Shown here piece by piece: positions 4,311 through 62,940 of a stretch of 64,000 nucleotides of DNA. Source of the stretch: Oscillospiraceae bacterium (GTDB lineage Bacteria; Bacillota; Clostridia; Oscillospirales; Acutalibacteraceae); NCBI GenBank assembly GCA_902788995.1, contig CADAMO010000001.1:8746-72745 (forward strand), written 5' to 3'. The position numbers and the translations under genes are program-made. Under the pieces are notes generated by a model, which searched no databases, was not told the origin of the DNA, and worked only from the letters and a program-made list of their open reading frames with translations. Numbering within the stretch: the first letter of the stretch is position 1; the number at the start of each line of letters is the position of its first letter.

Positions 4311-5285
4311 ATGGCGTTGATTTCCGTCATCATTCCCGTTTATAATACGAAGCCCTACCTGAACGCCTGTCTGGAATCCGTCGTCGGGCAGACTTACCGC
4401 GATCTGGAAATCATTCTGGTGGACGACGGCTCCACCGACGGCAGCGGGGAACTCTGCGACGAATGGGGACAAAAAGATTCAATAATCAAAGTGGTCCACA
4501 AAAAAAACGGTGGCCTTTCTTCCGCGCGTAACGCTGGAATGGCAATTGCGAAAGGGGATTACTTTGGTTTCGTTGACAGCGACGACGTCATCAGCCCCAA
4601 AATGTTTGAGGTCCTTTTACATATGGCGGTTGAGACCGGTGCCGATATTGCTCAATGTGGCTACGTCTGTTTTTCTTCTTATTCAGCACATATTTTTAAC
4701 TGCAATAACACCGATCCCGCCATCCGCTATTATGATGCACATGACGCAGTCCGATCACTTTTTATTGACGAAGACGTCAACGTCATCTGCTGCAATAAGC
4801 TTGTGAAGCGTTCTGTCGCAAAAAAGATCCCGTTTGAGGAAGGACGTATCAATGAGGACGTGCTTTGGACCTTCCGCGCTGTTTCAAAATCCGCAAAAAC
4901 AGTGGTCACGCAGGAGCCTCTTTACGGCTATTTTCAGCGGGAAGGCAGCATCATGAACAGCCGCTATACCGCCAAGCGGTTTGACGGCATTTATGCGCTG
5001 GAACAGCGTGCAAAAGAAGTGAAAGCGGTTTTTCCCGATCTGTTCCCGATGGCGGAAAGACAGTATGTCGGTGGCTGCATGTATCATTATCAGTGGCTGT
5101 GTCGCCTGCCCGCCTGTGATGAGTACAAGATCTACCGAAAACAACTCCATCAAAAGTTTTTGGGGGCCGATCTGAAGGCTGTCTACTCGGTCTCCGGACC
5201 GAAATATAAGATCTGGTATACGATGTTTCGGAAACTGCCGGCTTTGACCTGTTGGGTCCGGAATCAATTGAAGATAGGATTATGA
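4311..5285 (+). CDS. Family 2 glycosyltransferase
   Basis: ISVIIPVYN..LVDDGSTDGS..GFVDSDD motifs. Confidence 0.9.
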   Translation: MALISVIIPVYNTKPYLNACLESVVGQTYRDLEIILVDDGSTDGSGELCDEWGQKDSIIKVVHKKNGGLSSARNAGMAIAKGDYFGFVDSDDVISPKMFEVLLHMAVETGADIAQCGYVCFSSYSAHIFNCNNTDPAIRYYDAHDAVRSLFIDEDVNVICCNKLVKRSVAKKIPFEEGRINEDVLWTFRAVSKSAKTVVTQEPLYGYFQREGSIMNSRYTAKRFDGIYALEQRAKEVKAVFPDLFPMAERQYVGGCMYHYQWLCRLPACDEYKIYRKQLHQKFLGADLKAVYSVSGPKYKIWYTMFRKLPALTCWVRNQLKIGL

Positions 5286-22099: not shown

Positions 22100-23050
22100 T
22101 TGAGTTTACAGAGACAGTACAAGATCGAAATGGATCACGTTTCATTCGACGCAGATTTTGACAGAAAGACGATCGGGCTTTTACAAGAGGCGGCGAAGAA
22201 AAAGGAGCGTGTCAACATGAAACAACACAGACTGATCAAAATACTCGCTGCGGCCGCGGCGCTGGTCGTCTTTGCCGCGTCGGCCTTTGCGCTGGCAAAA
22301 CTTGTGATCCCGCAGGAGCTGTTCCGCGGGATGGAAGTGGAGCTGGAATCGCTGCAGGCGGTGGTGGACGTGGAAAACGCCGACGCGGATTCCGTCAGGA
22401 CCATGCACAAGACCTTTTCCAACGACGATTTCAGCATGACCTTTGAGGCCATCGCCAAGGGCAAAGCGCTGCGTTCCGTGTGGCATTTTGAACGCGGCAA
22501 TTCAGAGCAGACGGCGCATTCCGTCGACGACATCCTGAACAGCGCTCTCAATCAAGAGCCGGAGCAAAAGGCGGTTGATTCTCTCTACGCTATTTTCACC
22601 GTTCGCCGCAACGACGGGGGCGTGGTGCTGTACGCTGAGGACGGCAAGGGCCTGACCGGGGCCGACCTGGGCTACTGCCTGCTGATCAAGGGCTACTATC
22701 CCAACCCCAACATGCTGTTCGACGAGACCCATCGGGATATCGGCACCTATGAGGAGGGCGACGTGCTGTACGTGGCCTGCGACATCACCAACGCCGCCGC
22801 CTTTGCGGATCAGGAGCTGTCCATCGCGTTTACCAACACCATGGTTCCCAGCATCGACATTCTGGCCATGACGCCGGACGGCGAATTCTATTACAAGGAC
22901 GGCTACGATGGCGTGCCCGGCCTCTATGACTTCGATCTGGACGATTCGCTGGCCGACCCGGTCAGGGCGGCGGAGCTGAAATCCCACGGCACCTTCCACA
23001 CCTATGAGGAATTCCAGTCGCTGATGGCGGAGGAAGACGCCGCGCCGTAA
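22100..23050 (+). CDS. Putative anti-sigma factor / single-pass membrane protein
   Basis: Follows the ECF sigma gene. Short cytoplasmic N-terminus, one TM (LIKILAAAAALVVFAASAFALAKLV), and an extracytoplasmic domain. TTG start is uncertain (ATG at 22130 also possible). Confidence 0.5.
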   Translation: MSLQRQYKIEMDHVSFDADFDRKTIGLLQEAAKKKERVNMKQHRLIKILAAAAALVVFAASAFALAKLVIPQELFRGMEVELESLQAVVDVENADADSVRTMHKTFSNDDFSMTFEAIAKGKALRSVWHFERGNSEQTAHSVDDILNSALNQEPEQKAVDSLYAIFTVRRNDGGVVLYAEDGKGLTGADLGYCLLIKGYYPNPNMLFDETHRDIGTYEEGDVLYVACDITNAAAFADQELSIAFTNTMVPSIDILAMTPDGEFYYKDGYDGVPGLYDFDLDDSLADPVRAAELKSHGTFHTYEEFQSLMAEEDAAP

Positions 23051-23316
23051 GCGTTGGTTTTTCTGAAAAAACGTTCCCCGGGGCGGATCGAACGATCCGT
23101 TCCGGGGAAATCCGTCCCGACAGGTCCTGTCAGCGGCGTTTGTGTTATTTGCTGAAAGGGGAGTCGTGTGAAAACCGCTCCCTCTGTCATGATCTGTTCG
23201 TTGGTTCCGTACAATCGGCGTTCGGTGTTGTCTTTTGCGATGAGCACGCCGCAGACGGCCGCCGCCGCGCAGATGATCGCCGCCGCCACGATGATAAACC
23301 GTTTGTATAGCTCCAT
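23002..23316 (-). CDS. Hypothetical small membrane-anchored protein (doubtful 3' extent)
   Basis: Good SD (AAGGAGG 7 nt before the ATG) and an N-terminal TM (FIIVAAAIICAAAAVCGVLIA). The reading frame runs through the terminator hairpin at 23074-23109 and overlaps the convergent gene by 49 nt. Confidence 0.35.
   Translation of the reverse strand: MELYKRFIIVAAAIICAAAAVCGVLIAKDNTERRLYGTNEQIMTEGAVFTRLPFQQITQTPLTGPVGTDFPGTDRSIRPGERFFRKTNAYGAASSSAISDWNSS
23066..23109 (-). terminator. Minus-strand intrinsic terminator
   Basis: 17-bp stem TTCCCCGGGGCGGATCG/CGATCCGTTCCGGGGAA (two G-U pairs). On the minus strand it is followed by CGUUUUUU (plus-strand A-run 23066-23071). Confidence 0.6.
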
Positions 23317-23501
23317 TGCCGGTCCTCCTTTCGGATCTCCATGAAAAATGGCGGGCTGCCGCTATTTGGATTTGCCGGGGGCGTTTGGCAGCACGGCGCA
23401 TTGCGCCGTCTGGTGTGTGCCTTTCGATCTTGCGCCAATTATTTGTCGAAAACCGGGTTGTTCTCATTACCGGAATGTTGCATTATTGCCTGGCCGCCTG
23501 A

Positions 23502-23568
23502 CGGTGCGGGTCTCCAGTGGAGACCTCTGCCGAAGGCAGAAGCACCGACCGAGCCGGCAGGCGAGACC
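23502..23568 (+). repeat. Conserved structured element R1, copy A
   Basis: 63-nt core (23506-23568) is 59/63 identical to 28138-28200. It contains hairpins GGTCTC-CAGTG-GAGACC, TCTGCC-GAA-GGCAGA and GCC-GGCA-GGC, plus an enclosing helix CGGTGC (23502-07) / GCACCG (23542-47). Confidence 0.7.
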
Positions 23569-23690
23569 GTAATGCGCCGTTCTATGAAAAGCAACATTTG
23601 CGCCATAAACGCAGCAGAGGCTGCGTGCTACGGCATCTCACCCCAATTTGCCCATTTGATCCCCTCATCCTCCGTCATCAACCGCCATTG

Positions 23691-24767
23691 TTATTGTTTC
23701 TCCGCTGCCTTCACGCAGTCCGCCAGCACGTCGCCCATCAGGCGGGCGGAATAGATCGCCTCTTCCAGCGTGTTCACCTCGGTGCCGATCTCCAGCAGAA
23801 CCGAATTTTCCGTCAGGTCCATGTTGTACCGTCGGGGACAGAAGAAGACCGGCTTCATCAGTCCCGTGTATTTCTCCTGCGCCGTCTGCTGCAAATGCAG
23901 CGCAAAGCGCAGGTTTTCTTCCCAATGGGGAAATTCGATCCCGTCTTCCTCCGCTCCGGTGATGATCATGATCTGCGCGGCCTTTTTGCCGCCGATCAGG
24001 GCGGTGGGCTTCACGTGACGCCCCTTTTCCTTGAAGGCGTCCCGGTGCACGTCGACGGTGATCTGCAGGGTGGGGTTTTCCTTCAGGTACCGCTGCGCCG
24101 CCGCGCGGGAGCGGGCGTAGGCCCCCTCGTATTCGTCGTCGTAGACGGTACGGTCGTGGATCACCCCCACGCCCCGCTGTTCCAGCACCGCGCAGAGCTC
24201 GTCGCCGATCCGCAGCACGTTCCGGTCCTCTTCCCCCGTATGGGTCGGCTGCTCCGGGTAATAGCGTCCGTCGCCGTTGAGGGCGTAGCTTTCGGAGGTG
24301 TGGGTATGATAGATCAGCACCGTCGGGGCGGCGGCGTTCTCCACCGTCAGCGTCGGGCCCGCCTTCAGCAGTGCGTCAAAGTCCGGCGACAGGCTCTCCG
24401 TCGCGTTGCGGATCGCCACGTTTCCGGTCACGTCGGTGGCGTCGTCGGTGACGAAAAACGTCTCCAGAAGGGCGTCCTCTCCCTGCTCCGGCGAAAAGCG
24501 CTCCGCAAATTGCGCCCGCAGGGCCGCCACGTCCGCCGGCGTGCGGGCCAGCTGAGCCAATTCAACAGAGTCGCCGCTCTTTTCCTGAGCAGCATCCTCC
24601 GGCGTGGCTTCCGGTCCCTGTCCGTCCTGCTCCGCCTGCCGCGCCGCGTCGGCCGCCCCCCGCGTTTTCGCGCTGCCGCCGGCGCGGATCATGATCGTCA
24701 GCGTCAGCAGCAGGCACAAAGCCGCCGCCAGCAGCCGCCGCAGGTCCCCCGCATCGTGATATCGCAT
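23691..24767 (-). CDS. spoIIP: Stage II sporulation protein P
   Basis: N-terminal anchor, VLIYHTHTSESY motif, and the conserved position downstream of gpr. Confidence 0.85.
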   Translation of the reverse strand: MRYHDAGDLRRLLAAALCLLLTLTIMIRAGGSAKTRGAADAARQAEQDGQGPEATPEDAAQEKSGDSVELAQLARTPADVAALRAQFAERFSPEQGEDALLETFFVTDDATDVTGNVAIRNATESLSPDFDALLKAGPTLTVENAAAPTVLIYHTHTSESYALNGDGRYYPEQPTHTGEEDRNVLRIGDELCAVLEQRGVGVIHDRTVYDDEYEGAYARSRAAAQRYLKENPTLQITVDVHRDAFKEKGRHVKPTALIGGKKAAQIMIITGAEEDGIEFPHWEENLRFALHLQQTAQEKYTGLMKPVFFCPRRYNMDLTENSVLLEIGTEVNTLEEAIYSARLMGDVLADCVKAAEKQ

Positions 24768-24820
24768 TCTGCCGCCACCTCCGGAACAGTATATGCCCGT
24801 CCGGCGGGATTCATGCGCCG

Positions 24821-25696
24821 CTACATCAGCGAGACGATCTCTTCCCGCGTCAGCGCCTTTTGCAGCACGCAGTTGAGGGAGAGGGCGATGAATCTGGCGG
24901 CGGAATCGGTGATCATGTCCGTGTCCCGGGGCGTCACCATCATCCCGGCGTATTCCGCCGGCGGGTCGGCGCAGTCCTCATAGGCCCCCAGCACGTCGTG
25001 GGCAAGGCTCACCGCGTCCACCACCGTCGGCACCCCCACGGCGATCACCGGCACCCCCAGCGTCTCCTTCGTCAGCGCTCTGCGGCTGTTGCCCACGCCG
25101 GAACCGGGCTGTATGCCCGTGTCGCAGAGCTGCACGGTTTTCGCCAGCCGCGTCACGCTGCCGGCGGCCAGCGCGTCCACGGCGATCACCGCCGCGGGAC
25201 GGACCTGCCGGACGATCCCGGCGATCATCTCCGAGGTCTCGATCCCCGTTCGGCCCGCCACCCCCGGCGTCAGCACGCTGACGGACCGCAGCTTCTGCAG
25301 GCCCAGCTCCGCCTTCGTCTCCTCCGGCAGGTGGCGCGTTGCGATCACCATCCCCGCGCAGGCGGGGCCGAGGGCGTCTGGGGTGATGGCGGTGTTGCCC
25401 AGACCCGCCACCAGAATGTCTCCCTCCGGCGGCACCAGTTGTTCCAGCGCGCCGCACAGGGCCTCTATCCGGCCGTCCGACAGGGCTGCGGCGTCGGGGA
25501 ATCCCTTCGTCTCCAGCGTGATATACCGCCCCACCGGCTTGCCGATGGTCTCGGCCCCCTCCTGATCGAGCACGTCGATCACCGTTGTCACGCAGCCGTC
25601 GGTCTCGCTGCGGTTCATGGCAACGCCGGGGATCTCGCCCTCCCGGCACATCTCTCGCCGTTCCAGCGCCAGATCGGTTCGTATCATCATTTTCAC
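24821..25696 (-). CDS. gpr: Germination protease (GPR endopeptidase)
   Basis: IRTDLALERREM N-terminus, GLGN..TPDALGP motif, and the rpsT-divergent gpr-spoIIP synteny known from Bacillus and Clostridium. Confidence 0.9.
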   Translation of the reverse strand: MKMMIRTDLALERREMCREGEIPGVAMNRSETDGCVTTVIDVLDQEGAETIGKPVGRYITLETKGFPDAAALSDGRIEALCGALEQLVPPEGDILVAGLGNTAITPDALGPACAGMVIATRHLPEETKAELGLQKLRSVSVLTPGVAGRTGIETSEMIAGIVRQVRPAAVIAVDALAAGSVTRLAKTVQLCDTGIQPGSGVGNSRRALTKETLGVPVIAVGVPTVVDAVSLAHDVLGAYEDCADPPAEYAGMMVTPRDTDMITDSAARFIALSLNCVLQKALTREEIVSLM

Positions 25697-25837
25697 CCGC
25701 TTTGCTTTGTTTCGGCACTCCGCGCGCCCCTATCGGCGCGGTCATGCTTTAACGGCAGTATTGACGCTTTTGCGGCGGGCAAAACAGAAAAACGGCGCGG
25801 CGGGACGGAAAAACAAATCAATTTTTCAAAAAAAGTG

Positions 25838-25866
25838 TTGCAATTGCGCGGGCTTTATGCTATGAT
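25838..25866 (+). promoter_or_regulatory. Sigma-A type promoter of rpsT
   Basis: TTGCAA (25838-43), 17-nt spacer, TATGAT (25861-66). Confidence 0.6.
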
Positions 25867-25896
25867 TGATTCCTAAAGAAGGAGGTGTCAGGAACT

Positions 25897-26160
25897 ATGC
25901 CCAATATTAAGTCCGCAAAAAAACGCGTACTTGTCAACAAGACGAAGGCCGCCCGCAATAAGTCGGCGAACTCCGCTCTGAAGACCGCGATCAAGAAGGC
26001 CAACGTCGCCATCGAGACCAACGCCGCCGATAAAGAGGCTGTTGTGAAGGCTGCTTGCAAAAAGATCGACCAGGCTGCCGCCAAGGGTCTGATCCACAAG
26101 AACAACGCGGCCCGCAAAAAGTCTGCCCTTGCCGTCAGACTTAACAAGACCAACGCATAA
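25897..26160 (+). CDS. rpsT: 30S ribosomal protein S20
   Basis: MPNIKSAKKRVLVNKTKAARNKS.. GGAGG at 25881-85. The listed GTG start at 25885 is less likely. Confidence 0.93.
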   Translation: MPNIKSAKKRVLVNKTKAARNKSANSALKTAIKKANVAIETNAADKEAVVKAACKKIDQAAAKGLIHKNNAARKKSALAVRLNKTNA

Positions 26161-26215
26161 TCAACCGGCGCAAACGCAGACGTGCCCCTGACCCCGGCAT
26201 CGTTCCGCAGCCATT

Positions 26216-26254
26216 CGGTAAACGGACCGTGTTCAACCGTTTACCGGTACTTTT
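26216..26254 (+). terminator. rpsT intrinsic terminator
   Basis: 10-bp stem CGGTAAACGG/CCGTTTACCG with an 11-nt loop, followed by GTACTTTT. Confidence 0.6.
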
Positions 26255-26274
26255 GAAAGGACGGTATATTATCA

Positions 26275-26445
26275 ATGAAAAAGATCTGTAAAATAGTTGC
26301 TATCATTATTGCGATTGCCGCTGCGATCGCCGGTATTTATGTGGTTGTGACGAAGTTCATCAACAAGAAGCAGAGCGCTTCCGATGAGGAGAATTACGTT
26401 TCCTGCTCCTGTGAGGAGGACTTTACTTCCGAAAAAATAGGCTGA
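26275..26445 (+). CDS. Small membrane protein (56 aa), absent from the ORF track
   Basis: My translation: MKKICKIVAIIIAIAAAIAGIYVVVTKFINKKQSASDEENYVSCSCEEDFTSEKIG. One TM plus an acidic Cys-containing tail. Followed by a strong terminator. Confidence 0.5.
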   Translation: MKKICKIVAIIIAIAAAIAGIYVVVTKFINKKQSASDEENYVSCSCEEDFTSEKIG

Positions 26446-26519
26446 GCGGCGGTGTTTCCGCGCAAAGCCCTATATGCCTGTGAACGGCTCGCCGAGGCGG
26501 GCTTGGTCGAGGCATAAAG

Positions 26520-26550
26520 AAAAGACGGGTCCGCCGTCTTTTTTTGTTTT
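26520..26550 (+). terminator. Intrinsic terminator
   Basis: AAGACGG/CCGTCTT stem followed by TTTTTGTTTT. Confidence 0.75.
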
Positions 26551-26568
26551 CTGAATAGGAACAGAGGA

Positions 26569-28089
26569 ATGATGATAATGCGATATATGAAAAAACTGAC
26601 GGCGCTGCTGCTGTGCGCCGCGCTGCTGTTTGCCTGCTGTGTGCCGGCCTTCGCAGCGGATGCGCTGCCCGAGAGCGAGCACGACTATGCGAACAATCTG
26701 GAACAGCGTTGGGAGTACACCTATCCCGGCGAAGTCAAGGGCCTGTTCGTCACCTTTTCAGCGGATACGTGGGTGGAGGAGTACAGCGGATGGATCCGGA
26801 TCGACGACATCGTGGAGAACGGTGCGGTCACCGTCGGCGGCATGGAAAAGAACATCATTTTCCCCACGCTGAAAACCGGCGACGTGATCGTGATCTACGG
26901 TGAGAACGAACAGTACGTGGGCAGCTACCGGGGCGGCTCGCTGGCCGGCAAGACGGTTTTTGTGCCCGGCAGGTCTTTCTCCGTGGTGCTGATCACCGAC
27001 GGCTCGGTCACCGGCTACGGCTTCCGGGTGACGGCGGTGGAGCCCTGTCCGGACGACTACGTCCGGGAGATCACCTTCTGCCCCGGCGAAGGGCTCGAGC
27101 CGGTCACCGAAATCTTCACGGCGGATCAGACCGTGTATTTTGACGACCGGTATTATCAGCGCGACGGCCTTGCCTTCGTCGGCTGGTCCGCTGCTGAAAA
27201 CGGTCCTGTCGCCTTTGACGCCGACGGGGAAACCGTCGCCGCCGAGGTGCCCGCCACGCTTTACGGCGTGTGGGTCCCGCTGGCGCTGGGACGGGAGGAG
27301 GTCTTCTCCTTCTATAATTCAAGCTGGTATTTTGACGTGGACGATCAGGACCACTACTATATGACCGCGGAGGATTACCGCGCCATGCAGGAAAACCTGT
27401 TCAAAAACTTCGGCGTCGGACCCTATCCCACCCCCGTGGTCTCCATCGTGCTGGCAACCTACCGGGACTGGGATTTCGCCGGGTCCTGCTACGGCATGTC
27501 GGTGGTGACGGCGCTGCAGCACTACGGGCTGATCGATATCCTGCCCATGCAGAACGCCGCCTGCATGAACGACATGCAGCCGGACGAGGCGCTGATCAGC
27601 CTCATCAACTATTACCAGACCCAGACGGCCACCAGCTTTCCGGCGGAAAACAAGGCGCTGGTCAAGGGTTCGCCCAACATGCGCCAGCAGTTCCGCGACC
27701 TGTACCGCACCGTATCCGGGGGAAACATCGTGATCCTGACCTACTTCCGCGAGGGCATGAAGGAGATCACCGAGGCGCACGTGATCCTGCTGACGGGCTG
27801 CTACACCACGGCGGAGGGCGATCTGGCGTTTATCGTTTACGACTGCAACTCCGGCGACTATGAATCCGGCTGGTATGACGAGGTGTTCCGCGTGCCGGCG
27901 GGCGGCGACGCGGCGGTCTACGACGGCGACGTCATTGACGCGTTTTTCTGGACCGACGATTTCAGCCGCTTCCAATCCTTTGATATCAATAAAAAAGGCA
28001 CCCCGCTGGCGTGGTACCTTTCCTACTTCCGGCACGTGATCGAGGTGCTGGTCTCGTTTTTCCGGATGCTGAGCAATATCGGGAAATGA
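26569..28089 (+). CDS. Secreted protein with Listeria-Bacteroides-type repeat and a papain-like Cys/His motif
   Basis: Signal peptide ..CCVPAFA/ADA. FVGWSAAENGPVAFDADGETV repeat. FAGSCYGMSVV .. EAHVILLTGCY .. YDCNSGD resembles a Cys-His-Asp/Asn peptidase core. Start could be 26572 or 26578. Confidence 0.6.
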   Translation: MMIMRYMKKLTALLLCAALLFACCVPAFAADALPESEHDYANNLEQRWEYTYPGEVKGLFVTFSADTWVEEYSGWIRIDDIVENGAVTVGGMEKNIIFPTLKTGDVIVIYGENEQYVGSYRGGSLAGKTVFVPGRSFSVVLITDGSVTGYGFRVTAVEPCPDDYVREITFCPGEGLEPVTEIFTADQTVYFDDRYYQRDGLAFVGWSAAENGPVAFDADGETVAAEVPATLYGVWVPLALGREEVFSFYNSSWYFDVDDQDHYYMTAEDYRAMQENLFKNFGVGPYPTPVVSIVLATYRDWDFAGSCYGMSVVTALQHYGLIDILPMQNAACMNDMQPDEALISLINYYQTQTATSFPAENKALVKGSPNMRQQFRDLYRTVSGGNIVILTYFREGMKEITEAHVILLTGCYTTAEGDLAFIVYDCNSGDYESGWYDEVFRVPAGGDAAVYDGDVIDAFFWTDDFSRFQSFDINKKGTPLAWYLSYFRHVIEVLVSFFRMLSNIGK

Positions 28090-28094
28090 GAAAA

Positions 28095-28129
28095 GATGAA
28101 AGATGAAAGATGAGAGATGAGAGATGAGA
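28095..28129. repeat. Heptad array, left arm of cassette I1
   Basis: GATGAAA GATGAAA GATGAGA GATGAGA GATGAGA, five tandem 7-mers starting 6 nt after the stop at 28087-89. Confidence 0.9.
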
Positions 28130-28131
28130 GC

Positions 28132-28217
28132 CGGAGCGCGGGTCTCCAGTGGAGACCTCTGCCGAAGGCAGAAGCGTCGACCGAGGCGGCAGCCGAGACC
28201 CTGCGGCCGGCGTTTTA
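28132..28217 (+). repeat. Conserved structured element R1, copy B (with closing stem)
   Basis: Core 28138-28200 is 59/63 identical to copy A. GCCGG..GCG..GGGTCTC at the 5' end can pair with GAGACCC..GCG..CCGGC at the 3' end. A GNRA hairpin ATGGGC-GAAA-GCCCAT follows at 28226-28241. Confidence 0.7.
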
Positions 28218-28246
28218 TAATGGGTATGGGCGAAAGCCCATCCGTT

Positions 28247-28279
28247 TTTCATCATTCCGCTTTCATCTTTCCTCTTTCG
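28247..28279. repeat. Heptad array, right arm of cassette I1
   Basis: TTTCATC ATTCCGC TTTCATC TTTCCTC TTTCG.., complementary in register to the left arm (12-nt perfect GAAAGATGAAAG match). It ends at the tcdA stop codon. Confidence 0.85.
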
Positions 28280-28987
28280 TTAACGTCCGATCAGGGCGTT
28301 GACCACATACTCCGCGATGCGCAGGCCTGCGGCGGAGGGAATAAAACTGATGCTGGACGGGGGCGTTTTGCCTCCGTCTTCTTTGATATCGTACTGCGGC
28401 GGCGCCGGGGGATCGGGGGAGTAGAGCACCGTGACCTTTTTCAGCCCCGCCTCTTTATATTTCCGGCGCATCACCCGGCACAGGGGGCAGTATTCCGTCT
28501 GGTTGATGTCGGCGATGCGGAAGCCGTCGGACCGCAGCTTCCGGCCCGTGCCCATGGCGGCGATCAGCGGAACGTTCTCCGCCGCGCATTTCACCGCGAT
28601 GGCGGTCTTGGCCCTCGTGTCGTCGATGGCGTCCACACAGAAGTCGTAGGACCCTTCAAAAAAGCCGTCAACGTTTTCCGGCGTCACAAAGGCGGCCGCC
28701 GTGCGCACGGCGCAGTCCGGGGCGATGTCCAGCACCCTGGCGGCGGCCACGTCGGTTTTGTGCTGCCCTACGGTGGAATGCAGCGCGTAGAGCTGCCGGT
28801 TGATGTTGGAGAGGGCCACCGTGTCGCCGTCCACCAGCGTCAGCGCGCCCACGCCCGCCCGGGCCAGCGCCTCCACCACGTAGGAGCCTACGCCCCCCAG
28901 ACCGAAGACGATCACGCGGGCGCGCAGCAGCTTGTTCAGATTGTCCTCGCCCAGCAGGGCGGCGGTGCGGCGGTGTTCCTCTTTCAT
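28280..28987 (-). CDS. tcdA: tRNA threonylcarbamoyladenosine dehydratase (ThiF/E1-like)
   Basis: RVIVFGLGGVGSYVVEALARAGVGALTLVDGDTVALSNINRQ and the TcdA/CsdL-like length. Confidence 0.85.
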   Translation of the reverse strand: MKEEHRRTAALLGEDNLNKLLRARVIVFGLGGVGSYVVEALARAGVGALTLVDGDTVALSNINRQLYALHSTVGQHKTDVAAARVLDIAPDCAVRTAAAFVTPENVDGFFEGSYDFCVDAIDDTRAKTAIAVKCAAENVPLIAAMGTGRKLRSDGFRIADINQTEYCPLCRVMRRKYKEAGLKKVTVLYSPDPPAPPQYDIKEDGGKTPPSSISFIPSAAGLRIAEYVVNALIGR

Positions 28988-34955: not shown

Positions 34956-35683
34956 TGCGGACCGCGATCGTGACGGGCGGCGCAAAAGGCATTGGCGCCG
35001 CCGCCGTCAGACTCCTGTGCGAACAGGGTTTTTGCACAGCGATCAACTATCATACGTCAGAGGAAAAGGCGCTTGCCCTTTCCTCTTTCCTTGTTTCAAA
35101 GGGGTACGACGCCTTCCCCGTCAAGGCGGACGTGACCGATCCCGCGCAGGTGCGGGAAATGGTAGAAACGGTATTATCCCGCAGCAATTCCATCGACGTG
35201 CTCGTCAACAACGCCGGAATTGACCATTGGCAGCTGTTCGATACCGTCACCGACGAACAATGGCGGCGCGTGATCGACGCGGACCTGACCGGCGCGTTCA
35301 ACTGCTGCCGGGAGGTCCTTCCCGTCATGGTGAGGCAAAAATACGGCCGCATCGTCAACGTGGCCTCCGTCTGGGGGCAGGTGGGCGCTTCCTGCGAGGC
35401 GGTCTATTCCGCCGCCAAGGCAGGCGTCATCGGGCTGACCAAGGCGCTGGCCAAAGAGGCGGCCCTCAGCGGCGTCACCGTCAACTGCGTCTCTCCGGGG
35501 GCCATCGCCACGGATATGATGCGCCGGTTCAGCGAAGCGGAGATTTCCGCCTTCTGTGAAGAGGTGCCCATGGGGCGGCTCGGCACGCCGGAGGAAGCGG
35601 CAAGTGCCATCGCGTTTTTTGCCTCCGAAGAGGCGTCCTATATCACCGGTCAGGTGCTGGGCGTCAACGGGGGCATGGTGTAG
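34955..35683 (+). CDS. SDR family oxidoreductase (FabG-like 3-oxoacyl-ACP reductase)
   Basis: TGGAKGIG, NNAG and YSAAK motifs. Its TAG stop (35681-83) lies inside a REP-like unit. Confidence 0.88.
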   Translation: MRTAIVTGGAKGIGAAAVRLLCEQGFCTAINYHTSEEKALALSSFLVSKGYDAFPVKADVTDPAQVREMVETVLSRSNSIDVLVNNAGIDHWQLFDTVTDEQWRRVIDADLTGAFNCCREVLPVMVRQKYGRIVNVASVWGQVGASCEAVYSAAKAGVIGLTKALAKEAALSGVTVNCVSPGAIATDMMRRFSEAEISAFCEEVPMGRLGTPEEAASAIAFFASEEASYITGQVLGVNGGMV

Positions 35684-35702
35684 CGCGGCACTTCAGTGCC
35701 GC
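35680..35702 (+). repeat. Solo REP-like unit
   Basis: GTAGCGCGGCACTTCAGTGCCGC, one mismatch to the left unit of the five doublets. Overlaps the SDR stop codon. Confidence 0.85.
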
Positions 35703-35737
35703 TTCAGTGGGAAGTCGTCAGTCGGAAGTCGGTAGTC
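35703..35737. repeat. Heptad array, left arm of cassette I2
   Basis: TTCAGTG GGAAGTC GTCAGTC GGAAGTC GGTAGTC. Confidence 0.85.
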
Positions 35738-42148: not shown

Positions 42149-42172
42149 AGCGGAACCTGTTTGGTATTGGCC

Positions 42173-42323
42173 GGTAGCGCGGCACCTCAGTGCCGCTGTT
42201 TACTGAAGTATCATTCAGGAAACCGGAAGAATGAGGAAAAAACCGTATTTTCCGGGAGGCGTATATTGTTCAGGAGATAAAACAGTTGTTGACGTCAAGC
42301 GCGGCACTGAGGCGCCGCGATAC
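42173..42323 (+). repeat. REPIN-like doublet M1
   Basis: Left unit GGTAGCGCGGCACCTCAGTGCCGC. Right unit GCGGCACTGAGGCGCCGCGATAC (2 mismatches). AAACAGTTGTT lies 10 nt before the right unit. Confidence 0.85.
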
Positions 42324-42357
42324 GGAAAATCAACCGAAAAATCCTTCTGCCCCGCTG

Positions 42358-45173: not shown

Positions 45174-45219
45174 TTTTTGTCTCCTTTTTTTGAAGGGCGC
45201 GATCGGATTTCGCTGACCC

Positions 45220-45364
45220 GGTAGCGCGGCACCTCAGTGCCGCTATTTGCCAATGAAATATTGTTGAATTAGAAAATCAGAGGAAGCATCGTTTTACAGG
45301 ATGCTGTTTTTTTTGATCTGAAACAGTTGTTGTTGCATGAGCGGCACTGAGGTGCCGCGCTACC
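45220..45364 (+). repeat. REPIN-like doublet M2
   Basis: Perfect 24-nt inverted units at both ends. Interior holds a plus-strand terminator-like hairpin AGCATC/GATGCT plus T8 (45285-45314). AAACAGTTGTT lies 9 nt before the right unit. Ends 4 nt from the kinase stop. Confidence 0.9.
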
Positions 45365-45368
45365 GGAA

Positions 45369-46976: not shown

Positions 46977-47131
46977 GGTAGCGCGGCACCTCAGTGCCGC
47001 TGACGATAGATGTAACTGCTATACAGGTTATCGTTTGGAACCGGCAGCTTTAAACTCACGGTCTGCCAGAGGGGGACAATGCGTAAAACAGATTGTTATT
47101 GCCAGAAGCGGCACTGAGGTGCCCCGCTACC
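46977..47131 (+). repeat. REPIN-like doublet M3
   Basis: Left unit perfect. Right unit GCGGCACTGAGGTGCCCCGCTACC (1 mismatch). AAACAGATTGTT lies 10 nt before the right unit. Ends 5 nt from the recR stop. Confidence 0.9.
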
Positions 47132-47136
47132 GGGGA

Positions 47137-48096: not shown

Positions 48097-50109
48097 TTAC
48101 TCTACTTTGATATTGTATTTCCTGCCGAGCGTTTCCAGCGCGGCTTCACTGACGTATTTGGAGAGATAGGCGGGGTTGATAAAGGTCTTGATCTTGTTTT
48201 CCCCCAGCCGGATGAGGATGGTGTTGCCCGCGATGGAGGCGGTGGAATCCGTCAGCTGGCCGATCAGCGGGGCGAACCGCTTTTCCGTGCCGAGGATGAT
48301 CTGCATCCACGTGCGGCCGTCGATGGGCGTCGCCGTGGGCTCATCCGTCAGCACCTGCGTCTGCGGGGCGGCGGAGGGTCCGCCTGCCGCATCGAAGGGG
48401 AGCGGTACCGTGGCGTCCCCGGCCTGCGGGCTTCCGGCGTGTTCCTGCATAAAGGCGTCAAAGTCAAATCCGTCGTCCGGGGGGGGCGGCGGGTTGCTGC
48501 CGGCGGAGGACCCGCTTCCGGCGTGTTCGCTCATGAACGCGTCAAAATCAAAGGGCTCGTCGTCCGTCTCTTCCGTTCCGGCGGCGGCGAATCTGTCCGC
48601 AAAGCTGCCGGAGGAGGGGCGGTCAGCGGCGAAACCGGAGAAGGAGGGTCGCTGTTCACGGCTGTCGCGTTTTGGCGTCGGAACGGTCGCTTCCCCGAAA
48701 GGCTCGTCCGGCGGCGGCGCGTCGTCAAAGGGCGGTGCGTCGTCAAAGGGGGGCGCCTCGTCGAAGGGCGGTATATCGTCAAAGGGGGGCGCGTCGTCGG
48801 AAAAAAGCGGAATCGTCGCGTCGTTTTCGGAGAGTTCCGCCGGTGCGGCGACGGGGGCGGGGGCCGGCTTTGGCGGGGCGGCCTGCTGCCGCGGCGAGGG
48901 CGTTTCAACGGGCGTTTGAGCAACGGGCGTTTCGGCGGGGGAGAAGGCGACCGCGCCGCTTTTCAGCCGGGCGATCTCTTTTTCCAGCGCGGCCACCCTT
49001 GCGGTCAGCGCGGTGACGGAAACGTCGGTCTCCGGGCGGCACAGGCGGATCAGCGCCATTTCCGCCTCAATGCGGCGGTTCTGGGTGCGGCGGATGGCCT
49101 CCGACGCGGCGGCCAGCACGCCCAGCGCGTACAGCACGTATTCCTGGGTAAACGCTGCGGCGGAGGTTTTGATCCGCTCCAGCTCTTCGGCGGTGCAGAC
49201 GATCAGGTTCTCCGGGTGGGCCACCGTCTTCACGATCAGAAAACTGCGGAACCGGTCGATCAGCTCCACGCAGAGGCGCTCCGTATCGCAGGAGGCCTTG
49301 TGCAGCTCGTCTAAAATGGAAAGGCACCGGGCCGTGTCCTTGGCGGCGACGGCGTCCATCAGGTCGTAAATATATTCGCGGTTCATCAGACCCGCGGAGG
49401 AGGAGACCACGTCCACGGTCACGTCGTTTGCCACGGAAAGGCAGCGGTCCAGCAGCGAGAGCGCGTCCCGCATACCGCCGTCCGCAATGCGGGCGATCAG
49501 CACCGCCGCGTCGTAATCCAGCGACGCGTTTTCCGCCTTGGCGATCTCCACCAGCCGGTCCGCGATGCAGGCGGGCTCGATCCGGCGGAAGTCAAACCGC
49601 TGGCAGCGGGAGAGGATCGTGGAGGGGAGCTTGTGCACCTCGGTGGTGGCCAGAATGAACTTCACGTGCTCCGGCGGCTCTTCCAGCGTTTTCAGCAGCG
49701 CGTTGAAGGCCGCAATGGAGAGCATGTGGACTTCGTCGATGATATAGACCCGGTAGGTGGCCTGGGAGGGGGTGAAGTTGACCTCGTCCCGCAGCAGGCG
49801 GATATCGTCCACACCGTTGTTGCTGGCGGCGTCGATCTCCACGATATCCAGCACGGAGCCGTTGTCGATGCCGCGGCAGATCTCGCACTCGTTGCAGGGG
49901 TCGCCGTTCACCGGGTGCAGGCAGTTGACCGCCTTGGCGAATATTTTCGCGCAGGTGGTTTTGCCCGTCCCCCGCGAACCCGTGAACAGGTAGGCGTGGG
50001 CCAGGCGGTTTTCCCGGATCTGATAGGAGAGTGTCTTGGTGACCTGGGGCTGGCCGATCACGTCGGCAAACACCTGCGGCCGCCATTTACGGTAGAGGAC
50101 GCGGTACAA
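48097..50109 (-). CDS. dnaX: DNA polymerase III subunit gamma/tau
   Basis: TTG start. LYRKWRPQVF, GSRGTGKTT (Walker A), zinc module CLHPVNGDPCNECEICRGI. Long low-complexity linker with internal repeats. Confidence 0.93.
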   Translation of the reverse strand: MYRVLYRKWRPQVFADVIGQPQVTKTLSYQIRENRLAHAYLFTGSRGTGKTTCAKIFAKAVNCLHPVNGDPCNECEICRGIDNGSVLDIVEIDAASNNGVDDIRLLRDEVNFTPSQATYRVYIIDEVHMLSIAAFNALLKTLEEPPEHVKFILATTEVHKLPSTILSRCQRFDFRRIEPACIADRLVEIAKAENASLDYDAAVLIARIADGGMRDALSLLDRCLSVANDVTVDVVSSSAGLMNREYIYDLMDAVAAKDTARCLSILDELHKASCDTERLCVELIDRFRSFLIVKTVAHPENLIVCTAEELERIKTSAAAFTQEYVLYALGVLAAASEAIRRTQNRRIEAEMALIRLCRPETDVSVTALTARVAALEKEIARLKSGAVAFSPAETPVAQTPVETPSPRQQAAPPKPAPAPVAAPAELSENDATIPLFSDDAPPFDDIPPFDEAPPFDDAPPFDDAPPPDEPFGEATVPTPKRDSREQRPSFSGFAADRPSSGSFADRFAAAGTEETDDEPFDFDAFMSEHAGSGSSAGSNPPPPPDDGFDFDAFMQEHAGSPQAGDATVPLPFDAAGGPSAAPQTQVLTDEPTATPIDGRTWMQIILGTEKRFAPLIGQLTDSTASIAGNTILIRLGENKIKTFINPAYLSKYVSEAALETLGRKYNIKVE

Positions 50110-50247: not shown

Positions 50248-50374
50248 GCCTCTGTCACACGGCGTGCAGGCGGACTGTGTCGCACGGGCTGACCGCTTAA
50301 TGCTGCTCGGTTCCCCGCCTGACATGGTTCGCGGCGCTCCGTCGCACAGGACCAACACGCCGCATGACAGAAGC
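50248..50374 (-). ncRNA. ffs: Signal recognition particle RNA (core helix 5/8)
   Basis: The minus strand reads ..GUCAGGCGGGGAACCGAGCAGC.., matching the conserved domain IV GUCAGG..GGAA..AGCAGC. It is closed by a 19-bp helix GCUUCUGUCAUGCGGCGUG / CACGCCGUGUGACAGAGGC (with G-U pairs). It sits in the canonical position upstream of dnaX. Confidence 0.8.
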
Positions 50375-50432: not shown

Positions 50433-50592
50433 GTATTTTTTTAACCTTTATTTTATTTATTTTATTTTATTTTATCCCGGAGGATTGCGCGATTTGAATC
50501 AATACGTTGAAAAATGTCGAGACCCCGCAGCACGCAGCCTCAGCTGCGTTTTCAACGCAAGTGTTTCTTCGCGTATCACGCGCCTTGCGTCG

Positions 50593-57122: not shown

Positions 57123-57138
57123 GAGGGGCAATATCATC

Positions 57139-57289
57139 GTAGCGCGGCACCTCAGTGCCGCTCTTGACAAATGTAGCTTTTGAAACGGATTTTGGAATTA
57201 TCTGCCGTTTTCTCTTACATAATGAGCGTTAAGGCAACTATTTATAATAGTTGTTTGTGCTTATAGCGGCACTGAGGTGCCGCGCTACC
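57139..57289 (+). repeat. REPIN-like doublet M4
   Basis: GTAGCGCGGCACCTCAGTGCCGC .. AATAGTTGTT-N10-GCGGCACTGAGGTGCCGCGCTACC. Confidence 0.9.
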
Positions 57290-57434
57290 GCATGGGGCAA
57301 CATCTCGACAACCCTCAATTTGCCTCCTTCTGTCGTTCAATCAACTTTCTTTAAATAATATTCATACTTCTTTCATAAACCGTTCGTTTTTTCGATGCAA
57401 AATAGAATCAATATTCAAAAAGGGGAAAGAAACA

Positions 57435-62680: not shown

Positions 62681-62777
62681 GAATTTCGTCAGAAAAACGT
62701 CAGTTCCCCTTGATAAAAACCGAAAACAAACCTTCCCCCGTTGTGCTACCATATAGGCATAGCGGGGGACGCTTTTT

Positions 62778-62928
62778 GTAGCGCGGCACCTCAGTGCCGC
62801 TATTCGCCGGAGTTGCATTTCGGTAATCTGAAAGATAGGGATCATCGTTGTATTATCAGCGAAACCCTTGTTTTCAGTTCACAAAACAGTTGTTTGCGTT
62901 CCGAGCGGCACTGAGGTGCCGCGCTACC
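62778..62928 (+). repeat. REPIN-like doublet M5
   Basis: GTAGCGCGGCACCTCAGTGCCGC .. AAACAGTTGTT-N10-GCGGCACTGAGGTGCCGCGCTACC. Confidence 0.9.
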
Positions 62929-62940
62929 GCTTCCCGTACT

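Follow-up and report, generated by a model that had tools for sequence, protein, structure and literature searches.

The stretch of DNA analyzed here (the window) comprises 64,000 nucleotides (nt) of contig CADAMO010000001.1 from an Oscillospiraceae bacterium (assembly GCA_902788995.1), and contains two copies of a 62-nt element with a conserved fold. Members of the same family were found to be exactly present or absent at given sites without any duplicated target, a behaviour that indicates small mobile elements rather than regulatory RNAs. The element is probably non-autonomous and structure-dependent, inserting without target duplication by means of a factor that acts in trans. It is common in Clostridia of the gut and rumen, and in their phages, transposons and plasmid-like elements.

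Two copies of the element in the window

The original prediction, made from the letters of the window, had described a structured repeat present twice with 4 differences in 63 positions. Both copies were recovered at these sites, with 59 of 63 positions identical between 23506-23568 and 28138-28200 (plus strand). While these cores were confirmed, the longer interval proposed for the second copy (28132-28217) was too long; the conserved unit ends at 28198. The two copies are:

23505 to 23566, plus strand: copy A (TGCG...GCGAGA), preceded by ...GACGG and followed by CCGTAATG
28137 to 28198, plus strand: copy B (CGCG...CCGAGA), preceded by ...GCCGGAG and followed by CCCTGCGGCCGGC

The covariance model of the family matched copy A at 23503-23566 with 97 bits (the GG of the target plus 62 nt) and copy B at 28135-28198 with 85 bits. 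These were the only matches in the window, the runner-up scoring 17 bits. The boundaries of copy A were placed by analogy, using the family alignment and an exact skip of 62 nt observed at locus L011 (described below). The two copies share an exact core of 36 nt, for which no chance matches are expected, and shuffled sequences folded worse than either strand of the copies (z -2.6 to -4.1).

In a search of the whole window at the gathering threshold, no Rfam family matched the element, in agreement with the earlier statement that it matched no known RNA family. At E ≤ 10, the sole match in locus 23380-23700 was narK RNA, a chance match with 13.6 bits versus a gathering threshold of 43.2, and Rfam searches of 18 related loci gave nothing relevant. 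Literature searches by sequence strings and by keywords found the element described nowhere.

A fold maintained by compensatory changes

The family was collected by scanning one genome per species with exact and degenerate patterns. The number of loci rose from 8 to 17 in the initial scans, and a scan anchored on the 3' part yielded at least 120. For the structure alignment, 120 matches (112 distinct) were fitted to a model built from 36 canonical copies. The fold is a three-way junction, with helix P1 around hairpins P2 and P3, followed by GACCGAG, the small hairpin P4 and GAGA. In copy A the helices are located as follows:

23503 to 23507, plus strand: 5' strand of P1, GGTGC, with GG from the flank (target) and TGC from the element; its partner is 23542-23546
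23509 to 23525, plus strand: P2, hairpin GGTCTCC-AGT-GGAGACC, 7 pairs
23526 to 23540, plus strand: P3, hairpin TCTGCC-GAA-GGCAGA, variable in length across the family
23542 to 23546, plus strand: 3' strand of P1, GCACC, internal, pairing with the 5' end of the element and the target GG
23553 to 23562, plus strand: P4, hairpin GCC-GGCA-GGC, between near-invariant GACCGA and near-invariant GAGA

The family consensus reads RGGG, YGCG, P2 (GGTSTCC-RGT-GGASACC) and P3 (UCUGC(n)-loop-(n)GCAGA) in the 5' half, and A-GCRCC, GACCGAG, P4 (GSC-GRCA-GSC), GAGA and C after P3.

All four helices are maintained by compensatory changes, and the fold is under strong selection. Standard pairs occupy 97.6% of the cells of the four helices in the 112 distinct copies, and 15 of the 21 pairs have changed on both sides (192 cells). 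None of 500 shuffles matched these values of pairing and compensation, and the slid controls all fell to 40–49% paired. P1 was 97.2% paired, and P2 97.6% paired with compensatory changes in five of its seven pairs (central pair CG in 51 copies, GC in 46, UA in 5). In P3 all six modelled pairs showed compensatory changes. The length of this hairpin varies freely while its pairing holds, and the variation of its stem and loop gives the element a total length of 58–78 nt across the family. GACCGA was invariant in the seed alignment, and the position after it is usually G.

The differences between the two window copies, as first described, follow the same pattern. Two of them flip the middle pair of P4 (GCC/GGC against GGC/GCC), and this exchange generalises, with CG in 71 copies, GC in 31, UA in 3 and AU in 1. 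The other two (AC against GT) lie in the 3' strand of P1, where the proposed compensation also extends to the family (third pair UA in 74 copies, CG in 24). The two hairpins inside P1 are perfect in both copies, and every helix that had been proposed is supported across the family. A search for homologs had been put forward as a refuting test; many were found and they kept the helices, in a structure that is here assigned to a mobile element.

Two other parts of the original prediction fared less well. The suggested switch, in which the 3' GAGACC would pair with GGTCTC, was without compensatory changes; 45 of 103 copies break its variable pair, and the switch idea is therefore unsupported. A G-T pair had been taken to imply an RNA read from the plus strand. 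On that strand, P1, P2 and P4 of 106 copies contain 16 G.T and 17 A.C pairs, which gives no preference for either strand. A fold like that of the HDV ribozyme was also rejected, because it requires pairing of GGTCTC with the 3' GAGAC, which does not covary.

It was also found that locus L003 (4773-4860) contains a relative with the same P1-P2-P3 5' half and another 3' domain (…AAGCACTCCGCAGAGCGCAAAGTAGAGAGCGGAGG…). This combination points to a larger superfamily whose 3' modules differ. In L101 and L078 the element is reduced to a minimal form without P2 and P3.

The insertion site

Insertion takes place between RGGG and C, with no target bases duplicated and no letters shared at the joint. 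In 102 non-redundant sites, position -4 is a purine (G 65%, A 30%), G occupies -3 (82%), -2 (92%) and -1 (94%), and C follows the element at +1 (87%). Many sites are the loop of a hairpin formed by a G-run and a C-run, with the element directly after the G-run. The empty site of L011 is such a hairpin, GAAGGG^CTCA-CCCTTC (^ marks the point of insertion), and further examples are CTCAGGGG^CCGCTG-CCCCTGAG in L019, ACGGGG^AGAA-CCCCGT in L006, and the T-arm of a tRNA. As many sites share this geometry, the outer helix around many copies, which is specific to each locus, represents the stem of the target hairpin.

P1 consists of the last two G of the target and YGC of the element, paired with the internal GCRCC. 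Since it uses bases of both, the left junction lies inside an element-target helix. A variable, programmable guide was also sought, as mutual information between the flanks and the variable positions of the element, and only signals driven by outliers were obtained.

Filled and empty alleles

At locus L011 (Eubacterium plexicaudatum ASF492), positions 4972-5033 are skipped in the mouse-gut runs X50, X52 and X54. The skip is exactly 62 nt long (TGCG...CAAGA) and joins 4971 to 5034 without a shared letter, the left flank ending in ...GG, the element reading TG...GA and the right flank starting with CT. An identical core of two or more base pairs at both junctions and the empty site was not present at this locus. 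Both forms occur in X50 and X54 as an assembly bubble of a 137-nt and a 75-nt contig (depths 11.2/8.3 and 4.1/9.7, respectively), and the isolate runs X63 and X64 contain the filled form alone. The runs with both forms are judged to be DNA because of their 68-kilobase (kb) contigs and even depth.

A second site lies in a small phage open reading frame (ORF) after a P27-type small terminase gene. The element is present in frame in about 25 near-identical contigs and in the divergent phage L170, and the same site is empty in L176, L183 and L202 (AAAGGA^CAGGC), with flanks about 98% identical. Comparison of the filled and empty phage alleles revealed no duplicated bases. At this site, phages with 49% identity in their small terminases share an element conserved to about 97%, suggesting site-specific homing or selection on the element itself.

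Relaxase alleles in four runs have 144 nt swapped for 75 nt, and the net difference of 69 nt equals the length of the copy. For the window copies, a 7.8-kb contig of run X6 from a closely related strain skips 23374-23575 (202 nt, with GCCG on both sides), from which it follows that copy A arrived within a composite repeat. A contig of run X1 has, in place of 28128-28233, 40 nt that resemble the flanks of copy B without the element.

Insertions in genes and in other repeats

In comparison with the intact TnpV of pSGG1, locus L087 carries the element at both W-G^Q-R sites of the TnpV gene. The second of these sites is occupied in L001, L044 and L107, where the reading frame is broken, and L066 is a recombinant of two TnpV-site copies. 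In a relaxase gene the element adds 23 in-frame codons after MWG, and in the small phage ORF 21 in-frame codons. A phage methyltransferase-like gene contains one or two in-frame copies (21–22 codons) at two sites, and homologs both with and without the insert exist, the latter being without the element exactly at N-Q-G^ and K-G^P-G. Only in-frame insert lengths (63, 66 and 69 nt) were found in intact host genes. The element was in sense orientation in every insertion in a recognisable gene, i.e. at the two TnpV sites, in the relaxase, at the two methyltransferase sites and in the phage ORF.

Copies were also found in the T-arm of a displaced 3' fragment of tRNA-Trp, which belongs to a module that recurs at the termini of integrative elements. 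A tRNA intron was considered for these cases and rejected: the fragments are displaced 3' parts and not functional tRNAs, and ARAGORN finds no tRNA there. The module itself (L004, L005, L089, L124, L101 and L078) consists of tRNA-Trp or its 3' part, a terminator hairpin, the palindrome GGCACGC-GGA-GCGTGTC and, behind this, a second 3' fragment of tRNA-Trp. ORFs resembling tyrosine recombinases lie about 1 kb from it in L089, L035 and L112.

Further arrangements involve several copies. One is nested inside P3 of another (L081), head-to-tail copies occur in L055, L094 and L113, and chimeric contigs join copy A to copy B. The element is also present inside other repeat families that exist without it. 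One repeat family, CTCCCYY-loop-RGGG ... hairpin ... GAGGGRG, resembles a pair of anti-Shine-Dalgarno and Shine-Dalgarno sequences and is seen in L135 (1800-2150), downstream of the element in L022 and L123, and upstream in L039; it was found with and without the 62-nt element after RGGG.

Hosts, abundance and neighbours

The hosts include Ruminococcus (among them the cultured R. flavefaciens strains YL228 and Y1), Acutalibacteraceae, Oscillospiraceae, Lachnospiraceae (Roseburia, Agathobacter) and Eubacterium, and the element was present in 66 IMG/VR viral contigs. Many contigs of single metagenome-assembled genomes (MAGs) stop within the element, with unique sequence beginning just past it. 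In four bovine gut metagenomes its depth was 20–40 times that of the flanks. Head-to-tail junctions were detected in rumen metatranscriptomes, where the element is abundant; tandem DNA copies could explain both. Copies truncated at the 5' end occur, and in the contigs scanned the copies that retain a single end, left or right, adjoin housekeeping genes, not transposases. Guide RNAs of TnpB or IscB, or an end of an insertion sequence, were considered and rejected: genes of these kinds are absent from the neighbourhood, and the copies that have just the right end are plain truncations.

When the ORFs within 3–4 kb of the element were clustered, no protein family was consistently adjacent among the genome loci listed. 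Genes common to the viral contigs reflect one phage lineage and not the element. Orientation relative to genes is random: both flanking genes were on the strand of the element at 20 loci (+E+) with 13, 12 and 9 loci for -E-, +E- and -E+.

Mechanism and alternative explanations

In the mechanism that best accounts for these data, a trans-acting factor encoded away from the element would recognise its fold in single-stranded nucleic acid, and would cut and join at both junctions, with the internal CC serving as a fixed guide for the target GG. The likeliest candidate would be a single-strand DNA transposase of the HUH type, or a relaxase. Such an enzyme is preferred because it needs no homology, makes no duplication, and reads hairpins with short guide pairing. 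Crossover by a serine or tyrosine recombinase or of the IS110 type is excluded, as there is no identical core and no shared letter at the joint, and the L011 joint also excludes classical DDE transposition with target duplication.

Several observations weigh against this explanation. The runs with both L011 forms carry an FL-cDNA label, and the abundance of the element in rumen metatranscriptomes leaves room for a role as RNA. The net insertion is 62 nt at L011, whereas the phage ORF and one of the methyltransferase sites have gained 63 nt, which means either that the junction rule is not base-exact everywhere or that selection for the reading frame added one base. P2 and P4, the hairpins at the two ends, differ from one another. 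Among the neighbouring ORFs no transposase, relaxase or reverse transcriptase is tied to the element, and no Y1 HUH transposase is adjacent to it. Finally, 50.3% of the nearby coding bases are on the strand of the element and strongly polarised loci are split 34 versus 36, in a test where local gene direction is a proxy for the direction of replication; the strand bias that typifies single-strand transposition by IS200/IS605 is thus not seen.

There is a real chance that the mechanism of mobilisation is new. It is possible, although unlikely, that the element represents a new class of mobile nucleic acid, i.e. a unit of about 62 nt whose own fold holds the target-recognition helix (target GG with internal CC), and which is inserted and excised base-exactly without duplication, terminal repeats or a linked gene. 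If so, among the substrates of single-strand HUH-type enzymes that act on hairpin loops it could be the smallest; alternatively, it could be a mini-intron of bacteria, excised from RNA and then returned to DNA by copying.

An intron-like element would be transcribed together with the surrounding host sequence and removed precisely from the RNA, either autocatalytically or through a host enzyme recognising its fold. It would spread in DNA by reverse splicing and reverse transcription, and the helix that the GG of the 5' exon forms with the internal GCRCC would be its internal guide sequence. The exact skip without duplication, seen in runs labelled FL-cDNA, fits this explanation, as do the sense orientation of all insertions in recognisable genes, the abundance in metatranscriptomes and the 5'-truncated copies. 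Overall it is nevertheless improbable. Empty alleles were present in phages, MAGs and metagenomes assembled from plain DNA, and orientation relative to genes is random when all loci are considered. If the element were spliced out, selection for the reading frame would be needless, and the exclusively in-frame lengths in intact genes therefore count against an intron. In metatranscriptome X51 a contig crosses the left junction, and the joined form was not found in X49 or X51. Moreover, all known self-splicing introns are far longer than 62 nt, the start of the element is UGCG or CGCG and not GUGYG, and it matches no ribozyme or intron model in Rfam.

A structural repeat used by the host, similar to REP sequences, was also considered. 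Such a repeat might bind a protein, stabilise or terminate RNA, or serve for recombination, and would spread passively by template switching or gene conversion via GGG/C(C) microhomology. The near-uniform flanks RGGG^C would provide this microhomology for copy-choice, and the hairpins that often form the sites are places where replication stalls. The lack of a nearby mobility gene, the random orientation, and the recombination of copies with each other (L066 and the chimeras of copies A and B) are in line with this explanation too. However, passive copying leaves four strict helices and near-invariant unpaired bases unexplained, and one to four bases of microhomology are very little for repeated exact events. 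Insertions within essential phage and plasmid genes make a host function implausible, and the conservation of the element between phages with diverged small terminases (about 97% against 49%) counts against the explanation as well. The chance that the element is such a repeat is small.

The discrete regulatory or small RNA implied by the original prediction, transcribed from the plus strand and switching between two pairings of GGTCTC, is very improbable and is largely refuted by context: although the structure covaries, RNA libraries contain matching sequences and one subfamily lies between CTCCCY and GAGGGR (a pair like anti-Shine-Dalgarno and Shine-Dalgarno), those CTCCCY...GAGGGR units occur without the element too, the alternative pairing does not covary, the wobble pairs carry no strand signal, no downstream gene or orientation is consistent, and copies lie within ORFs and have exact empty alleles.

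Relation to known elements

By analogy, the mobile element proposed here behaves most like hairpin elements of the REP and PATE type, and like Rickettsia palindromic elements (RPEs) in its in-frame insertions. It does not share the defining properties of classical MITEs (miniature inverted-repeat transposable elements), IS200/IS605 derivatives, group II introns, riboswitches or known ribozymes.

REP sequences, with their RAYT proteins, and the PATEs derived from IS200/IS605 are likewise very small, multi-copy and non-coding, with hairpins instead of terminal inverted repeats. They insert by a fixed short motif without duplication, are excised seamlessly and are mobilised in trans, and they find the flanking motif through an internal guide that pairs with it. 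As in IS200/IS605-type insertion, the element stands 3' of a fixed motif, with no duplication and with exact presence and absence. Unlike these systems, it has no strand bias relative to the direction of genes, taken as a proxy for replication, and no Y1 transposase adjacent to it. Its target is GGG^C and not TTAC-like, and its left junction lies inside the helix of a three-way junction and not upstream of the foot of a hairpin. Its end hairpins are also dissimilar. Each lies 4 nt inside its end of the element, P2 on the left and P4 on the right, and both covary and differ in sequence and size. The ends of IS608-type elements have similar hairpins.

RPEs are also short structured repeats that lie in frame within protein genes and beside RNA genes, are tolerated as extra peptide segments, and have no known transposase. 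The relaxase, methyltransferase and phage ORF copies are tolerated in the same manner. RPEs differ in lineage and sequence, and the 62-nt element is half their size, has a sharp target and present-day exact filled and empty alleles, and occurs in many genera and in phages.

Classical MITEs (Correia/NEMIS, RUP, Nezha) resemble the element in being small, non-autonomous, high-copy, mostly intergenic and disruptive to assemblies. In contrast to them, the element has no target-site duplication and no terminal inverted repeats, its ends (TGCG/CGCG... and ...GAGA) not being complementary, and the one-ended copies in the contigs scanned showed no parent insertion sequence with the same ends. Class C group II introns and IStrons share hairpin targets, insertion without duplication, pairing of the 5' flank with an internal sequence, and sense orientation in genes. 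They are at least 400 nt long, whereas the element has 62 nt, no domain V or VI and no ORF; at the exact joint its ends are UGCG...AAGA and not GUGYG...AY, its joined form was seen only in runs that are probably DNA, there is no evidence of its splicing, and its insert length is under reading-frame selection. Integron attC sites are similarly read as a folded single strand, with crossover in a helix formed partly by neighbouring sequence. The element differs from them in having no R and L boxes (RYYYAAC/GTTRRRY), no integrase and no cassette array, and it is the entire mobile unit without cargo.

With riboswitches the element shares a conserved, covarying structure, and it does not occupy a fixed position and orientation upstream of coherent genes. 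Self-cleaving ribozymes (hammerhead, twister, pistol, hatchet, HDV-like) gave no covariance-model match in 23380-23700 (E ≤ 10) or in the 18 related loci. The flanks of one subfamily contain CTGACGAG, which is similar to a hammerhead core. A hammerhead was rejected, as GAAA and a stem III arrangement are missing and the flanking repeat exists without the element.

Surroundings of the window copies and other repeats

Neither of the two window copies shows a gene-specific role. The sequences around them are:

23374 to 23575, plus strand: 202-nt segment holding copy A, with ends resembling inverted repeats (GGCAGCACGGCGCATTGCG / CGTAATGCGCCGT) and 4-nt GCCG on each side
28090 to 28130, plus strand: upstream arm around copy B, 7-nt runs GATGAAA/GATGAGA, complementary to 28250-28280
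28250 to 28280, plus strand: downstream arm around copy B, CATCATTCCGCTTTCATCTTTCCTCTTTC, complementary to 28090-28130

Copy A is neighboured by two minus-strand ORFs, SpoIIP (23691-24767) and 22502-23467 (no Pfam match). Copy B lies between convergent ORFs, 26569-28089 on the plus strand and a gene of the ThiF family (28280-28987) on the minus strand. Composite units resembling the 202-nt segment were found in L008, L099 and L017, and in L006 a copy is bracketed by arms in the same way, with runs of the GGAATTC type. Over 23503-26662, locus L002 shares 95% identity with the window, and the synteny ends exactly at the left edge of the element.

Arms of this kind belong to long inverted repeats of 7-nt units (GATGAGA, GGAATTC/GGAATGC, GGAAGTC) bracketing 100–350 nt, which occur at 28090-28130/28250-28280, 52427-52464/52820-52857 and 35706-35737/35864-35895, and in L006 (1655-1935). 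Just downstream of copy A, 23578-23639 is 76% like 50519-50580 on the minus strand, which lies just upstream of the gene for the signal recognition particle (SRP) RNA, and both contain the hairpin ACGCAGCnGAGGCTGCGT. This 62-nt stretch may represent a further small repeat, or else a motif close to promoters. The SRP RNA gene, of the bacterial small type, was located at 50261-50358 on the minus strand (RF00169, 55.5 bits), and is preceded by an AT-rich region with AAAATAAAAT runs and a promoter-like site (TTGCCA...TATAAT).

A unit of about 155 nt is present five times in the window (42171-42328, 45218-45366, 46977-47135, 57138-57293 and 62777-62932), with a solo arm at 35679-35703. The units end in perfect inverted repeats of 25–27 nt (CCGGTAGCGCGGCACCTCAGTGCCGCT / AGCGGCACTGAGGTGCCGCGCTACCGG), and the arm was also found in another MAG (L017, 329-365); there was no Rfam match. 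The unit appears to be a second repeat family, similar to MITEs. Within a long minus-strand ORF (48097-50109), an 18-nt repeat (TCGTCAAAGGGCGGTGCG-like) occurs four or five times in tandem at 48704-48793.

Significance

The element breaks metagenome assemblies, adds peptide segments to relaxases, methyltransferases and phage proteins, and disrupts TnpV. The filled and empty alleles present in a single mouse-gut sample constitute a natural system for studying the insertion of DNA or RNA into hairpin loops without duplication, and the fixed GGG^C rule together with the built-in guide helix makes the element potentially interesting as a minimal module for insertion. If confirmed, the element would be among the smallest mobile elements known, and would represent a repeat family that is defined by its structure and is possibly undescribed.
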